Shown piece by piece: positions 8,122-42,297 of a stretch of 64,000 bases of DNA. Where the stretch lies: NCBI RefSeq assembly GCF_003790525.1, contig NZ_CP033635.1. One strand, 5' to 3'. The notes beneath the pieces are model-generated. The model was not told the origin of the DNA. It saw nothing but the letters and a program-made list of their open reading frames with translations, and searched no databases. Within the stretch, counting starts at the first letter, position 1. Each line of letters begins with the position of its first letter. Source of the DNA: Escherichia coli (GTDB taxonomy: Bacteria > Pseudomonadota > Gammaproteobacteria > Enterobacterales > Enterobacteriaceae). A program made the position numbers and the translations under genes.

Positions 8122-8210
8122 TTTGCCAGGCATTTGACTGGCAGACGTCCCCGCCGTTGGTGATTAACGACGGCGTTTTGATTAACTAACATGAGAACCC
8201 ATACGACGCC

Positions 8211-9089
8211 ATGAGCGACGACAATTCACACAGTAGTGACACGATAAGCAACAAGAAGGGATTTTTCTCCCTGTTACTCAGCCAACTTTTCCACGGTGAA
8301 CCGAAAAACCGTGACGAACTGCTGGCGCTGATCCGTGATTCCGGGCAGAACGACCTTATCGACGAAGATACGCGCGATATGCTCGAAGGGGTGATGGACA
8401 TCGCAGACCAACGCGTCCGCGACATCATGATCCCCCGCTCCCAGATGATTACCCTGAAACGCAACCAGACGCTGGACGAATGCCTTGATGTCATCATTGA
8501 GTCCGCCCACTCACGTTTCCCGGTGATTAGCGAAGACAAAGATCACATTGAAGGGATTCTGATGGCGAAAGACTTGCTGCCGTTTATGCGCAGCGATGCT
8601 GAAGCCTTCAGCATGGACAAAGTGTTACGTCAGGCGGTTGTCGTTCCTGAAAGTAAGCGCGTAGACCGGATGCTGAAAGAGTTTCGCTCTCAGCGTTACC
8701 ACATGGCGATCGTCATTGACGAATTCGGTGGAGTTTCCGGTCTGGTGACCATTGAAGACATCCTGGAACTGATTGTTGGTGAGATTGAAGACGAGTATGA
8801 CGAAGAAGATGATATCGACTTCCGTCAGCTGAGTCGTCATACCTGGACCGTGCGCGCACTGGCTTCTATTGAAGACTTCAACGAAGCGTTCGGCACCCAC
8901 TTTAGCGATGAAGAGGTTGACACTATCGGTGGTCTGGTGATGCAGGCATTTGGGCATCTTCCGGCGCGTGGCGAAACCATCGACATCGACGGTTACCAGT
9001 TCAAAGTGGCGATGGCCGACAGTCGGCGTATTATTCAGGTTCATGTCAAAATCCCGGATGACTCACCCCAGCCGAAGCTGGATGAATAA
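8211..9089 (+). CDS. corC: CorC/YbeX magnesium-cobalt efflux accessory protein (CBS-pair + CorC_HlyC), 292 aa
   Basis: translation matches recalled CorC; conserved position after ybeY. Confidence 0.93.
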
Positions 9090-9113
9090 AACCGAAACTG
9101 GATAGATAACTAC

Positions 9114-10652
9114 ATGGCTTTTGCCTCATTAATTGAACGCCAGCGCATTCGCCTGCTGCTGGCGTTATTATTCGGTGCCTGCGGAACGCTGGCCTTCTCT
9201 CCTTACGACGTCTGGCCTGCGGCGATTATTTCGCTGATGGGGCTTCAGGCGTTGACCTTTAACCGCCGTCCACTCCAGTCTGCCGCTATTGGCTTTTGCT
9301 GGGGATTTGGCCTCTTTGGCAGCGGTATTAACTGGGTCTATGTCAGCATCGCGACCTTTGGCGGAATGCCTGGCCCGGTTAACATCTTCCTGGTGGTACT
9401 GCTGGCGGCGTATTTGTCGCTGTATACCGGACTGTTTGCTGGCGTGCTGTCGCGTCTGTGGCCGAAAACCACCTGGCTGCGCGTGGCGATTGCCGCCCCT
9501 GCTCTCTGGCAAGTGACCGAGTTTCTGCGCGGTTGGGTACTAACAGGCTTCCCGTGGTTACAGTTCGGCTATAGCCAGATTGATGGCCCGTTAAAAGGGC
9601 TGGCACCGCTAATGGGCGTGGAAGCCATTAACTTCCTGCTTATGATGGTTAGCGGCCTGCTGGCACTGGCGTTAGTCAAACGCAACTGGCGTCCGCTGGT
9701 GGTGGCCGTCGTGCTGTTTGCCCTACCCTTCCCGCTGCGTTACATCCAGTGGTTTACCCCGCAACCGGAGAAAACCATTCAGGTTTCGATGGTTCAGGGC
9801 GATATTCCGCAATCGCTGAAATGGGACGGAGACCAGCTACTTAATACGCTGAAGATTTACTACAACGCAACGGCACCGCTGATGGGCAAATCATCGTTGA
9901 TTATCTGGCCGGAGTCGGCGATAACCGATCTGGAAATTAATCAGCAACCGTTCCTCAAAGCACTGGACGGTGAGTTGCGCGATAAAGGTAGCTCGCTGGT
10001 AACCGGGATTGTCGACGCGCGTCTCAATAAGCAGAACCGCTACGATACCTACAACACCATCATCACACTGGGTAAAGGTGCACCGTACAGCTACGAATCA
10101 GCCGATCGCTATAACAAAAACCATCTGGTGCCGTTTGGCGAGTTTGTCCCGCTCGAGTCGATTCTGCGTCCGTTAGCACCGTTCTTTGATCTGCCGATGT
10201 CGTCGTTCAGCCGTGGGCCATATATCCAGCCGCCGCTGTCGGTAAATGGTATTGAGCTTACTGCGGCTATTTGCTACGAGATCATTCTCGGCGAGCAAGT
10301 GCGCGATAACTTCCGCCCGGATACCGACTATCTGCTGACTATCTCCAACGATGCGTGGTTTGGTAAGTCTATTGGTCCATGGCAGCACTTCCAGATGGCG
10401 CGAATGCGTGCGTTGGAGCTGGCGCGCCCACTGTTGCGCAGCACCAACAACGGCATTACGGCGGTGATTGGCCCGCAGGGTGAGATTCAGGCGATGATCC
10501 CGCAGTTCACCCGCGAGGTGTTAACCACTAATGTGACGCCGACCACCGGACTCACACCGTATGCACGTACCGGCAACTGGCCGCTGTGGGTACTGACGGC
10601 ATTGTTTGGTTTTGCCGCTGTGTTGATGAGTCTGCGTCAACGACGTAAATAA
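9114..10652 (+). CDS. lnt: apolipoprotein N-acyltransferase, 512 aa
   Basis: multi-TM N-terminus plus CN-hydrolase domain; matches recalled Lnt. Confidence 0.95.
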
Positions 10653-11048
10653 TCCCTTCTTATCGTGCCGGAATACATCCCGTATTTCGGCACGCTCGCC
10701 GGATGTGGCATCAGTGCGTTATCCGGATGACAAAATTCCCCTATCCAACTTTGGCACATCTATTGCTTTGTTATACAAGGCAAAGCTTGAACCCGCATCA
10801 GTACAACCCGGTTGCACCACAGCAATCCACCGGTAGCACCAAAAGAGTGCATTTTAAGAATTTTGCTTCGGAATGGTGCGGCGCATCTCGCAAAAACAAA
10901 CAATAAAACATCAATATCTTTACATTTAGCCAAACTAAATGTTACCTAACAAACACAACACTGCACAATAAAGTTGCAGATGATAACAACACAAACACTC
11001 ACAACGGGTATCCATGCGTTCTTAACGCAGAAGATAAAGGAGTTGGAT

Positions 11049-11957
11049 ATGCAATTACGTAAACCTGCCACAGCAATCCTGGCCCTGGCGCTTTCCGCAG
11101 GACTGGCACAGGCAGATGACGCCGCCCCGGCAGCAGGCAGTACGCTGGACAAAATCGCCAAAAACGGTGTGATTGTCGTCGGTCACCGTGAATCTTCAGT
11201 ACCTTTCTCTTATTACGACAATCAGCAAAAAGTGGTGGGTTACTCGCAGGATTACTCCAACGCCATTGTTGAAGCAGTGAAAAAGAAACTCAACAAACCG
11301 GACTTGCAGGTGAAATTGATTCCGATCACCTCACAAAACCGTATTCCGCTGCTGCAAAACGGCACTTTCGATTTTGAATGTGGTTCTACCACCAACAACG
11401 TCGAACGCCAAAAACAGGCGGCTTTCTCCGACACTATTTTCGTGGTCGGTACGCGCCTGCTGACAAAAAAAGGCGGCGATATTAAAGATTTTGCCGATCT
11501 GAAAGACAAAGCCGTCGTAGTCACTTCCGGCACCACCTCTGAAGTTTTGCTCAACAAACTGAATGAAGAGCAAAAAATGAACATGCGCATCATCAGCGCC
11601 AAAGATCACGGTGACTCTTTCCGTACCCTGGAAAGCGGTCGTGCCGTTGCCTTTATGATGGATGATGCTCTGCTGGCTGGTGAACGTGCGAAAGCGAAGA
11701 AACCAGACAACTGGGAAATCGTCGGCAAGCCGCAGTCTCAGGAAGCCTACGGTTGCATGTTGCGTAAAGACGATCCGCAGTTCAAAAAGCTGATGGATGA
11801 CACTATCGCTCAGGTGCAGACCTCCGGTGAAGCGGAAAAATGGTTTGATAAATGGTTCAAAAACCCAATTCCGCCGAAAAACCTGAACATGAATTTCGAA
11901 CTGTCGGACGAAATGAAAGCACTGTTCAAAGAACCGAATGACAAGGCACTGAACTAA
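11049..11957 (+). CDS. gltI: glutamate/aspartate ABC transporter periplasmic binding protein, 302 aa
   Basis: ATG at 11049 preceded by AAGGAG; signal peptide MQLRKPATAILALALSAGLAQA; ORF-track start at 10974 is an upstream extension. Confidence 0.93.
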   Translation: MQLRKPATAILALALSAGLAQADDAAPAAGSTLDKIAKNGVIVVGHRESSVPFSYYDNQQKVVGYSQDYSNAIVEAVKKKLNKPDLQVKLIPITSQNRIPLLQNGTFDFECGSTTNNVERQKQAAFSDTIFVVGTRLLTKKGGDIKDFADLKDKAVVVTSGTTSEVLLNKLNEEQKMNMRIISAKDHGDSFRTLESGRAVAFMMDDALLAGERAKAKKPDNWEIVGKPQSQEAYGCMLRKDDPQFKKLMDDTIAQVQTSGEAEKWFDKWFKNPIPPKNLNMNFELSDEMKALFKEPNDKALN

Positions 11958-12114
11958 TTACAAGAACCAGGGGCGGAAATTCCAGCCCTCTCGATTGTTA
12001 CGTAGCACGGACAGACTATACGCCTGATGGTCGTTCCCCATCGGGCCTGAAAACCGCAATACGCTGGGTAACAATCTTCGAGGGTAGCAGTTAACGCTGC
12101 TACCCTCTTTTTTC
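11958..12114 (+). ncRNA. sroC: SroC-type sRNA region (gltI-gltJ spacer ending at an intrinsic terminator)
   Basis: location between gltI stop and gltJ start with terminator hairpin 12080-12107 and T-run; SroC is known to derive from this spacer; exact 5' end not determinable here. Confidence 0.55.
12080..12114 (+). terminator. intrinsic terminator/attenuator within the glt operon (gagggtagcag-ttaa-cgctgctaccctc + TTTTTT)
   Basis: 11-bp perfect stem plus T-run read directly. Confidence 0.8.
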
Positions 12115-12126
12115 TGGAGTAGATTT

Positions 12127-12867
12127 ATGTCTATAGACTGGAACTGGGGTATTTTTTTACAACAAGCCCCGTTCGGCAACACCACCTATCTTGGTTGGAT
12201 CTGGAGTGGTTTTCAGGTGACGATCGCTTTGTCGATCTGCGCCTGGATTATCGCTTTCCTCGTCGGTTCATTTTTCGGCATTTTACGTACCGTTCCAAAC
12301 CGTTTTCTCTCCGGTCTGGGTACGTTGTATGTCGAACTGTTCCGCAACGTGCCGTTGATTGTGCAATTCTTTACCTGGTATCTGGTGATCCCGGAGCTGT
12401 TGCCGGAGAAAATCGGCATGTGGTTTAAGGCCGAGCTGGATCCCAATATTCAGTTTTTCCTTTCATCCATGCTCTGCCTGGGGCTGTTTACCGCCGCCCG
12501 TGTTTGCGAACAGGTACGCGCCGCGATTCAGTCGTTGCCGCGTGGGCAAAAGAATGCCGCGCTGGCAATGGGTCTGACGCTACCGCAGGCTTACCGCTAT
12601 GTACTGCTGCCTAATGCTTATCGCGTTATCGTCCCGCCGATGACCTCCGAGATGATGAACCTGGTGAAAAACTCCGCCATCGCCTCGACTATCGGTCTGG
12701 TAGATATGGCGGCGCAGGCGGGTAAATTGCTCGATTACTCAGCTCATGCCTGGGAGTCGTTTACCGCCATTACGCTTGCGTATGTGTTGATTAACGCGGT
12801 TATCATGCTGGTAATGACGCTGGTTGAACGTAAAGTTCGCCTGCCCGGCAACATGGGGGGCAAATAA
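12127..12867 (+). CDS. gltJ: glutamate/aspartate ABC transporter permease, 246 aa
   Basis: ATG 12127 with GGAG upstream; polytopic membrane protein. Confidence 0.93.
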
Positions 12868-13541
12868 TGTACGAGTTTGACTGGAGTTCCATAGTTCCTT
12901 CCCTGCCATATCTGCTCGACGGGCTGGTGATCACCCTGAAAATCACCGTCACGGCAGTCGTGATTGGTATTTTGTGGGGCACCATGCTGGCGGTGATGCG
13001 CTTGTCCAGCTTTGCGCCCGTAGCGTGGTTTGCCAAAGCCTACGTTAACGTATTCCGCTCGATTCCTTTAGTTATGGTTTTGCTGTGGTTTTACCTGATT
13101 GTGCCGGGTTTTCTGCAAAACGTGCTGGGATTATCGCCAAAAAATGATATCCGTTTAATCTCGGCGATGGTGGCGTTTTCGATGTTTGAAGCGGCCTACT
13201 ATTCAGAGATTATCCGTGCCGGTATTCAAAGTATTTCCCGTGGTCAGTCGAGCGCCGCGCTGGCGTTGGGGATGAATCACTGGCAGTCGATGAAACTGAT
13301 TATTCTGCCGCAGGCGTTCCGCGCGATGGTGCCGCTGCTGCTCACTCAGGGCATCGTACTGTTCCAGGATACCTCACTGGTGTATGTGTTATCTCTGGCC
13401 GATTTCTTCCGTACCGCCTCAACCATTGGTGAGCGTGATGGTACGCAGGTCGAGATGATCCTGTTTGCCGGGTTTGTTTATTTCGTTATTAGCCTTAGCG
13501 CATCGTTGTTGGTCAGCTACTTGAAAAGAAGGACAGCATAA
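12867..13541 (+). CDS. gltK: glutamate/aspartate ABC transporter permease, 224 aa
   Basis: TAATG overlap with gltJ; permease fold. Confidence 0.93.
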
Positions 13542-14266
13542 TGATTACCCTGAAAAATGTTTCAAAATGGTATGGTCACTTTCAGGTGCTGACCGACTGC
13601 TCAACCGAAGTGAAAAAAGGCGAAGTGGTGGTGGTTTGCGGCCCGTCTGGTTCCGGCAAATCAACGCTGATTAAAACCGTCAACGGCCTCGAACCGGTGC
13701 AGCAAGGTGAAATCACCGTCGATGGCATCGTGGTTAATGATAAGAAAACCGATCTGGCAAAGCTGCGTTCCCGCGTCGGGATGGTGTTTCAGCATTTCGA
13801 GCTGTTCCCCCATCTGTCGATTATCGAAAACCTGACCCTGGCGCAGGTGAAAGTGCTTAAACGCAATAAAGCGCCGGCTCGTGAAAAAGCATTGAAATTG
13901 CTGGAGCGCGTCGGGCTTTCCGCACATGCCAATAAGTTTCCGGCGCAGCTTTCCGGCGGCCAGCAGCAGCGAGTGGCGATCGCTCGCGCATTGTGCATGG
14001 ATCCTATTGCCATGCTGTTCGACGAACCAACGTCGGCGCTGGATCCGGAGATGATCAACGAAGTGCTGGACGTGATGGTCGAACTGGCGAACGAAGGAAT
14101 GACGATGATGGTGGTGACCCACGAAATGGGCTTTGCCCGTAAAGTGGCGAATCGGGTGATCTTTATGGACGAGGGTAAAATTGTCGAAGACTCGCCGAAA
14201 GACGCTTTCTTCGATGATCCGAAATCGGACCGCGCAAAAGACTTCCTCGCGAAAATCCTGCATTAA
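13541..14266 (+). CDS. gltL: glutamate/aspartate ABC transporter ATP-binding protein, 241 aa
   Basis: TAATG overlap with gltK; Walker [10 protein letters not shown], signature [15 protein letters not shown]. Confidence 0.95.
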
Positions 14267-14273
14267 TCACTCT

Positions 14274-14297
14274 GGCGCGCATACCCAAGTGCGCGCC
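14274..14297 (+). terminator. GC-rich hairpin downstream of gltL (ggcgcgc...gcgcgcc), weak T-tract
   Basis: inverted repeat read directly; no strong U-run. Confidence 0.3.
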
Positions 14298-14383
14298 ATC
14301 TCACGCTTTATCGTTTCGCTCCTCGTATCTGTTACATCCTGGCGGTACCCTTGTCGCAAAGAAGCACACAACAAGGAGCAACA

Positions 14384-15319
14384 ATGGCACTGCCAATTCT
14401 GTTAGATTGCGACCCAGGTCATGACGACGCTATCGCAATCGTTCTCGCCCTCGCCTCACCAGAGCTTGATGTCAAAGCAATTACGTCTTCCGCCGGAAAC
14501 CAGACACCAGAAAAAACCTTACGCAATGTTCTGTGTATGCTGACCTTGCTTAATCGCACCGATATTCCGGTAGCAAGCGGTGCGGTAAAACCATTAATGC
14601 GTGATTTGATTATCGCGGACAATGTGCACGGCGAAAGCGGTCTCGACGGCCCGGCATTACCGGAACCGACGTTCGCACCGCAAAACTGTACGGCGGTGGA
14701 GCTGATGGCGAAAACGCTGTGTGAAAGTGAGGAACCTGTCACCATTGTTTCTACCGGACCGCAAACTAACGTTGCCTTGCTGCTCAATAGCCACCCGGAA
14801 CTGCATAGCAAAATTGCCCGTATCGTGATTATGGGCGGCGCAATGGGGCTTGGTAACTGGACGCCTGCGGCTGAATTTAATATTTACGTTGACCCGGAAG
14901 CGGCAGAAATTGTCTTCCAGTCAGGGATCCCGGTGGTGATGGCCGGTCTGGATGTTACTCACAAAGCACAAATTCACGTTGAGGACACCGAGCGTTTCCG
15001 CGCCATTGGCAACCCTGTTTCAACCATTGTTGCCGAACTGCTGGATTTCTTCCTCGAATATCATAAAGACGAAAAATGGGGCTTTGTCGGCGCACCGCTG
15101 CATGACCCATGCACCATCGCCTGGCTGTTAAAACCGGAGTTGTTTACCACTGTTGAGCGCTGGGTTGGCGTGGAAACACAAGGGAAATATACCCAAGGTA
15201 TGACGGTTGTTGATTATTATTATCTGACTGGCAATAAACCGAATGCCACTGTAATGGTCGATGTTGATCGTCAGGGCTTTGTTGATTTACTGGCCGATCG
15301 TCTGAAATTTTACGCTTAA
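14384..15319 (+). CDS. rihA: pyrimidine-specific ribonucleoside hydrolase, 311 aa
   Basis: ATG 14384 with AAGGAG upstream; nucleoside hydrolase DCDPGHDD motif. Confidence 0.93.
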
Positions 15320-17075: not shown

Positions 17076-17183
<108 letters not shown>

Positions 17184-41736: not shown

Positions 41737-42297
41737 TCAAAACTGAAAGCGCATCCAGGCAAAGTACACATTGCCATTGTTGTAGGTACCCGGAATGTAG
41801 GTCATCTGAAACGTCGCGGGGCCATACCCCACAGAGGCCAATGGCAGTAGAACCGGGAGAGGGATGTAATTCCAGTTATCGCGTGCCGTTACGCCAGCGG
41901 TGAATCCCAGGCCTAAATGAAAATTTTCATCTGCCAGCGGTCGCCAGGTACTTTCCCATCCGTATCCGGCAATCGGTTCCCATTTGTTCCACGAGTCCTT
42001 AAATGCCATGGCATACAGGCCATGCCAGTTTCCTTTTTCGTCCCAACGCGACTGACCAAAACCGCCACCCCACGGTCGCTCGTTATAGCGATCGGTTTTT
42101 TCTTTGTCATAGGCAAAACGCGCATGCCAGGTGATGGCAGGAATATATAAATCATAATGTTCTGGCTGTTGCCAGGTTTGTGCAATATTTTCTCTAAACG
42201 TTGTCATCCACTCATCAGCGTTAGCAAAAACTTTACCAACACTGATTAACTGAATAAAAACAAAGAAAAATATAGTGACATATTTACTCACGTTCAT
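41737..42297 (-). CDS. pagP: lipid A palmitoyltransferase PagP (outer-membrane beta-barrel), 186 aa
   Basis: matches recalled PagP incl. signal peptide. Confidence 0.95.

Follow-up and report, generated by a model that had tools for sequence, protein, structure and literature searches.

An IS5-free lnt–gltI spacer with degenerate REP-like palindromes in an Escherichia coli strain unlike MG1655

Results

Organization of the lnt–gltI locus

The locus lies within a 64,000-nt stretch of E. coli DNA (hereafter, the window) and its features are collected in Table 1. A previous sequence-only reading of the same DNA had put the spacer between lnt and gltI at 396 bp, a length on which gene ends (lnt stop codon TAA at 10650-10652, gltI ATG at 11049), the ORF list and the RefSeq annotation of AR_0013/SMS-3-5 agree. 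The longest small ORF in the spacer has 67 aa in the ORF list, and the small ORFs are considered non-coding given that 1-bp indels of other strains cross them. A permissive E-value Rfam scan of positions 9000-15000 returned sroC only, with zero matches inside the spacer.

Table 1. Features of the lnt–gltI region, in window coordinates.
Feature	Position	Strand	Details and basis
lnt CDS (apolipoprotein N-acyltransferase)	9114..10652	+	ORF list; SMS-3-5 and AR_0013 annotation (identical sequence)
lnt–gltI spacer	10653..11048		396 bp; without IS5 and without rhomboid cassette
Polymorphic segment	10653..10803		replaced by ~2.2 kb in 3239/5426 E. coli genomes
Hairpin	10664..10694	+	13-bp stem, 5-nt loop; starts 12 nt past lnt stop; fold and repeat search
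Degenerate REP unit, Y-type orientation, gccggatgtggcatcagtgcgttatccggatg	10698..10729	+	23/29 REP core match
Predicted sigma54 -24/-12 element of gltIJKL, TGGCACATCTATTGCT	10752..10767	+	predicted start near 10778
Three NtrC-like dyads (10813-10829, 10835-10851, 10864-10880)	10813..10880		pattern matches, conserved across genera
Conserved block TTTACA...ACTAAATGT	10919..10948	+	8-bp inverted repeat 10922-10929 / 10935-10942
CTAA, empty target of K-12 IS5D	10946..10949		99 bp upstream of gltI ATG; junction comparison with MG1655
CA-rich element of gltI 5′ UTR, predicted GcvB R1 target and translational enhancer	10976..11005	+	
gltI Shine-Dalgarno AAGGAG	11037..11042	+	invariant across genera
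gltI CDS (glutamate/aspartate periplasmic binding protein)	11049..11957	+	ORF list; annotation of identical sequence
sroC sRNA (gltI 3′ UTR)	11953..12115	+	Rfam RF00369, 174.8 bits, E = 6.9e-38

To place the spacer among its relatives, GltI was scanned for in one genome per species and lnt and gltI were then located in each locus. The two genes are adjacent in 75 of the 80 species loci, with spacers of ~350-600 bp (a few up to ~1 kb), and a rhomboid insert sits between them in two further loci, both from E. coli relatives. Alignment of the spacer across Escherichia, Salmonella, Citrobacter, Silvania and Leclercia shows that the part running from the sigma54 element through the gltI ATG is conserved, whereas the ~100 bp immediately 3′ of lnt differ genus by genus, yet hold extragenic palindromes in every one of them.

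The IS5 target and the identity of the strain

In MG1655 (NC_000913.3), an ‘insertion sequence:IS5D’ feature (687851-689045) together with insH3 (b0656) is annotated between gltI (b0655) and lnt (b0657). The sequence-only reading had placed such a copy in MG1655, a statement that a reference without IS5 at this position would have refuted; the annotation bears it out. The element, 1195 bp with terminal GGAAGGTGCGAACAAG repeats and the insH ORF, is absent from the window according to the ORF list and to BLASTN of MG1655 IS5D, a search proposed by that reading, which returned no match in the whole 64 kb. Its statement that the spacer contains neither a transposase ORF nor IS terminal repeats likewise holds, with spacer ORFs of at most 67 aa and the same empty BLASTN result. 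The window and the MG1655/W3110 locus share genes, spacer backbone, the sigma54 17-mer and the CTAA target. They differ in that in K-12 the sigma54/NtrC region is separated from the gltI leader by the 1195-bp IS5 and its 4-bp duplication, whereas the window has an empty site and ~5% of its spacer positions changed. CTAA is found on both sides of IS5 in K-12 and in a single copy in the window, a configuration in which IS5 would have jumped into the single CTAA in the MG1655/W3110 branch of K-12.

A 90-bp probe spanning the K-12 left junction has full-length matches in 351 of the 5426 complete E. coli genomes. Among the junction matches listed (~115 of the 351), all but one are K-12 laboratory derivatives or K-12-sized genomes; these include MG1655, C600, DH5alpha, DH10B, BW25113 and J53, and a few bear field-type source labels. 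The K-12 derivatives LS5218 and NCM3722 have no IS5 upstream of gltIJKL (PMC5699524), so the insertion is polymorphic within K-12 stocks and a missing IS5 is not, by itself, diagnostic of a non-K-12 strain.

The existence of such IS5-free derivatives (PMC5699524) raises the question of whether the window could come from a K-12 derivative that, as NCM3722 and LS5218, never gained IS5 or lost it. We reject this origin, which we regard as next to impossible, on the divergence from MG1655: 2-3% in lnt and gltI-gltL and ~5% in the spacer, expressed as identity 97.0-97.8% for the flanking genes and 94.3-96.6% for the spacer. Moreover, the window is identical to SMS-3-5. Over positions 1-25000 it shares 100% identity with E. 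coli SMS-3-5 (NC_010498.1) and with ~20 further genomes, all others staying at ≤97.7%, and base-by-base comparison shows positions 1-42224 to match SMS-3-5 exactly, with one mismatch over 42221-62801. Whole-window alignment, the means of strain typing that the sequence-only reading had put forward, thus assigns the window to the SMS-3-5 lineage, 2-3% from MG1655; the proposal of a source unlike MG1655/W3110 is supported by this divergence and not by the missing IS5 alone. SMS-3-5 itself carries a 1.2-kb frameshifted ISKpn26 (IS5-like) at TTAG 42221-42224 beside pagP that the window does not have. This is the only structural difference between the two and, together with the one SNP, indicates that the source of the window is very closely related to SMS-3-5 but is not that exact assembly.

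The urinary isolate BH100 (NZ_CP024650.2), which is not K-12 and has the rhomboid haplotype described below, carries an ISKpn26 (IS5-like) at the equivalent CTAA in the orientation of K-12 IS5D; this independent insertion makes CTAA a recurrent target of the IS5 family. In the spacer alignment CTAA is specific to Escherichia, the other genera having GTTAACAAAC at that place. More broadly, window positions 10943-10965 read GTTACCTAACAAACAC in Escherichia versus GTTAACAAACACATAT in other genera, a difference for which two compensating 4-bp indels would account and whose Escherichia version makes CTAA (CTAG in E. albertii).

A rhomboid cassette in the same spacer

From the 5426 complete E. coli genomes, 1833 match the whole spacer, 351 have it split by IS5 and 3239 (60%) match 10804-11048 only. 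The cassette found in this last group (8157-10374 in the numbering of locus L004, with alleles differing by up to ~6%) carries a minus-strand gene for a 625-aa protein in which a beta-propeller comes after a rhomboid domain (Pfam PF01694, E = 3.6e-29). The rhomboid haplotype has its own REP relics after lnt and its own sigma54 element (TGGCATGTAAGTTGCTTT), offset from the common sequence exactly as in the short form, the replaced segment being otherwise unrelated in sequence. A minus-strand sigma54 site for the rhomboid gene was searched for, with none at ≤2 mismatches. Among the species sampled, the cassette is limited to E. coli, E. whittamii and one other Escherichia, which indicates that the short form is ancestral. 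A limited literature search found no paper linking the rhomboid gene to the lnt–gltI locus, weak evidence of novelty.

Palindromes downstream of lnt

Two palindromes had been described from sequence at the 5′ end of the spacer, and both are there. The imperfect hairpin gtgccggaata...tatttcggcac occupies 10665-10693 and goes beyond chance by folding statistics, and gccggatgtggcatcagtgcgttatccggatg occupies 10698-10729, where both core match and folding agree with the wording ‘degenerate palindromes’ and ‘REP-like’. They are extragenic, starting 12-46 nt past the lnt stop.

The arms of the first hairpin (10664-10676 and 10682-10694, 13 nt each) are 92% complementary. As + strand RNA it folds with -17.5 kcal/mol (z = -6.3), with 0 of 200 shuffles folding as well, and the hairpin of the complementary strand is weaker (-13.5) because one pair is G·U on the + strand only. 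In 11 Escherichia sequences, the hairpin and the 11-nt lnt trailer show a mean pairwise difference of 0-0.04; the stem shows few changes, one A-to-G compatible with wobble pairing and two that break end pairs, and the loop another two. A covariation test on both helices had too few changes to inform, 10 of the 13 helix 1 pairs being invariant. Compared to E. albertii, ~5 of 43 positions differ, no lower than a rough neutral expectation of our own estimation.

The second unit matches the Y-type REP core in 23 of 29 positions (10698-10726, + orientation only), scored against GCCGGATG...TTATCCGG, which we take to be the core consensus; a canonical REP copy at 17082-17111 of the window supports this choice, and 30 shuffles of the 64-kb window gave 0 matches at ≤7 mismatches. 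Its fold is weak (-13.9 kcal/mol, z = -2.05) and its sequence hypervariable, with a mean pairwise difference of 0.18 in the 11 Escherichia and pairs broken in several strains. The GTAG/CTAC tetranucleotide, the RAYT recognition/cleavage site, is missing (...TTATCCGGATGAC in the window versus ...TTATCCGGCCTAC in intact copies), which marks the window copy as decayed.

What lies at the same place in other species points to the origin of both units. Salmonella and C. braakii have one intact REP 3′ of lnt, Citrobacter amalonaticus and C. youngae have two opposite REPs, E. whittamii has a textbook intact BIME directly after lnt, and other palindromic repeats follow lnt in Silvania and Leclercia. 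In the alignment, the REP-like unit falls opposite the intact Salmonella and Citrobacter REP, and the first hairpin takes the position of the inverted REP that comes first in C. amalonaticus and C. youngae. Since its REP likeness is confined to the outer stem (GCCGGA...TTCGGC), the ancestry of this hairpin is argued mainly from that positional alignment, according to which it is probably the REP-derived arm of an old REP pair. As enterobacterial REP/BIME elements, the window palindromes are extragenic, located just 3′ of a gene and imperfect, with the 23/29 core match and with two adjacent units at the site of the inverted REP pair of Citrobacter and E. whittamii. They differ from such elements in that both units are degenerate and CTAC/GTAG is gone; the second has lost most of its inner stem and the first keeps REP-like bases in the outer stem only. 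Judging by these comparisons, we conclude that the two palindromes represent a decayed relic of a REP pair (BIME), which after lnt would be a feature found throughout the Enterobacteriaceae.

The palindromes fall inside 10653-10803, the very segment that differs between haplotypes, and could for that reason be read as the scar of an IS5 excision or of a rhomboid cassette deletion. We rejected this highly improbable origin: the palindromes resemble neither IS5 nor its inverted repeats, the IS5 target is 250 bp away, no part of the 2.2-kb cassette matches the palindromes, and the short, REP-bearing form is present in almost all Enterobacteriaceae species sampled and hence ancestral. Intact REPs at the same place in Salmonella and Citrobacter argue for decayed REP/BIME relics rather than IS scars.

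A second alternative concerns function. With a GC-rich stem of -17.5 kcal/mol 12 nt past the lnt stop, and a stronger fold on + than on - strand RNA, the hairpin at 10664-10694 could act as the intrinsic (Rho-independent) terminator of the ybeZ-ybeY-corC-lnt operon. This is improbable, as the stem runs into GCTCGCCGG (GCTCGCC) and not into a U-tract, a terminator scan finds none in the spacer, and other genera have REPs or unrelated palindromes at that place with no conserved terminator. By analogy with other REPs, the decayed units would most likely fold in the lnt transcript, protecting or delimiting its 3′ end, and their most likely role would be that of a stable structure at the 3′ end of the lnt operon mRNA.

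The gltIJKL control region

The sigma54 element TGGCACATCTATTGCT is a perfect match to TGGCAC-N5-TTGCW and the sole 0-mismatch match in the 64 kb. Its core is invariant across genera and has a mean pairwise difference of 0.01 in the 11 Escherichia sequences, flanked by variable sequence (0.13-0.21 for 10695-10751 and 10770-10803; 0.21 for 10732-10751). In MG1655, sigma54 ChIP-seq has one of its stronger intergenic peaks on the identical 17-mer, which there now faces insH3 (PMC4591121). ChIP-chip detects sigma54 at the corresponding Salmonella gltI site, TGGCACGTCTATTGCTTT (PMC3844500), and ybeJ (gltI) is rpoN-dependent, being down in rpoN mutants of CFT073 and EDL933 (PMC9017345). Positions 10752-10767 are the predicted sigma54 promoter of gltIJKL in the window strain, the published occupancy being that of K-12 and Salmonella.

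The three NtrC-like dyads have 2-3 mismatches each to TGCACC-N4-TGGTGCA and fall within 70 bp, against a background of ~0.35 per kb. All of them lie 3′ of the sigma54 element, at ~+36 to +103 relative to the predicted start, with none in lnt or the 300 bp upstream of the element; a search for a second sigma54 site downstream of the dyads found none at ≤2 mismatches. A NtrC ChIP-seq peak is published for gltIJKL at 688381-688461 (PMC4066584). With the sigma54 motif centre, known in the same coordinates, as the anchor, this peak maps to approximately 10757-10837 of the window. The experiment was reportedly done in NCM3722, and its data probably came from an IS5-free background.

In the textbook cases, glnAp2, glnHp2 and glnK, NtrC sites lie upstream of the promoter. 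The gltI region resembles these promoters in its consensus -24/-12 element, published in vivo occupancy by sigma54 and NtrC and nitrogen-limitation control, and differs from them in that all NtrC-like dyads found are downstream of the promoter element. Sequence matches conserved across genera would place the enhancer in an unusual position. We note that the downstream sites may also repress a downstream sigma70 promoter. In the gltI leader, the palindrome TGCACAATAAAGTTGCA (10962-10978), conserved in Escherichia, Salmonella and C. amalonaticus, has 2 mismatches to the NtrC dyad and may represent either a hairpin of the leader or an additional, fourth site for NtrC.

The 13-bp inverted repeat after lnt could itself be considered a DNA site for an upstream activator of the sigma54 promoter, since its centre is ~99 bp upstream of the predicted start, a typical enhancer distance, and it is a perfect-looking dyad with little variation within Escherichia. 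We find this quite improbable: the repeat does not resemble the NtrC dyad (zero matches at ≤3 mismatches there), it is absent from Salmonella and several Citrobacter that retain the sigma54 element and the downstream NtrC-like sites, and the NtrC ChIP peak is centred ~117 bp off, across the promoter. A REP-derived hairpin remains our preferred assignment for this repeat.

Both sigma70 and sigma54 promoters are known for gltIJKL (PMC9731577). A consensus promoter/terminator scan of the spacer gave no sigma70 promoter and no terminator; as the scan could not place one, the conserved block at 10919-10948 is given only as a candidate, and probably is the sigma70 promoter region. Within this TTTACA...TAAATGT block, just upstream of the IS5 target, there is a perfect 8-bp inverted repeat (ACATTTAG / CTAAATGT) that may be a regulator site or promoter spacer.

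Further downstream, the CA-rich element pairs in prediction with GcvB nt 63-91 at -31.3 kcal/mol, a value reached by 0 of 4265 background windows. The duplex was obtained by a sliding scan restricted to R1 (unrestricted RNAduplex with full-length GcvB gave a meaningless 260-nt duplex) and is in line with the GcvB site and translational enhancer described in the literature. The Salmonella gltI leader likewise has a CA-rich stretch upstream of the RBS with predicted pairing to GcvB R1. Escherichia differs from it by 7 extra CA-rich bases (the ACAAACAC block) and, further upstream, by the CCTA/CTAA-containing variant that creates the IS5 target.

Discussion

Read 5′ to 3′, the spacer would consist of a short lnt trailer, two decayed REP palindromes, the sigma54 promoter, NtrC-like sites, a conserved block with the probable sigma70 promoter, the single CTAA and a gltI leader with GcvB target and RBS. 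We hold it very probable that these 396 bp, from a non-K-12 E. coli belonging to the SMS-3-5 lineage, are the intact, ancestral-type and uninterrupted gltIJKL control region, with decayed REP palindromes. That the arrangement is functional and uninterrupted follows from what the literature reports on the gltIJKL promoters and on the effect of IS5 in K-12. SroC is induced normally in O157 and O111, which have no IS5 there, and only marginally in K-12 owing to the insertion (PMC9731577). With no IS5 between promoters and gltI, induction of gltI and SroC by nitrogen limitation should be normal in the window strain.

One might speculate further that the spacer is a long-standing structural polymorphism tuning glutamate/aspartate uptake and SroC–GcvB, an idea that we consider unlikely as it stands. 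Its three natural states would be the short REP-bearing form, the 2.2-kb rhomboid cassette and the IS5-family insertions at CTAA, all keeping the sigma54 core and the enhancer-like NtrC cluster downstream of the promoter, and the conserved hairpin between lnt read-through and the sigma54 promoter may serve as a REP-derived insulator.

That non-K-12 strains lack this IS5, and what it means for gltI/SroC induction, has been published before, and the biology here is known: a laboratory-lineage IS5 insertion absent from wild strains, a well-studied regulatory region and ordinary decayed REPs. Mildly unusual are only the 60:40 split of the population between rhomboid and short forms and the downstream NtrC-like sites. 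These two, along with the independent IS5-family insertion at CTAA, are side observations perhaps worth a short follow-up, leaving the verdict unchanged. The main value of the analysis is as a sanity check, showing the window to be wild-type, SMS-3-5-like E. coli and K-12 to be the exception at this locus. As the IS5 of MG1655 blunts the nitrogen-limitation induction of gltI and of SroC, the sponge of GcvB, results obtained in K-12 on the gltI/SroC–GcvB circuit do not transfer directly to natural isolates.
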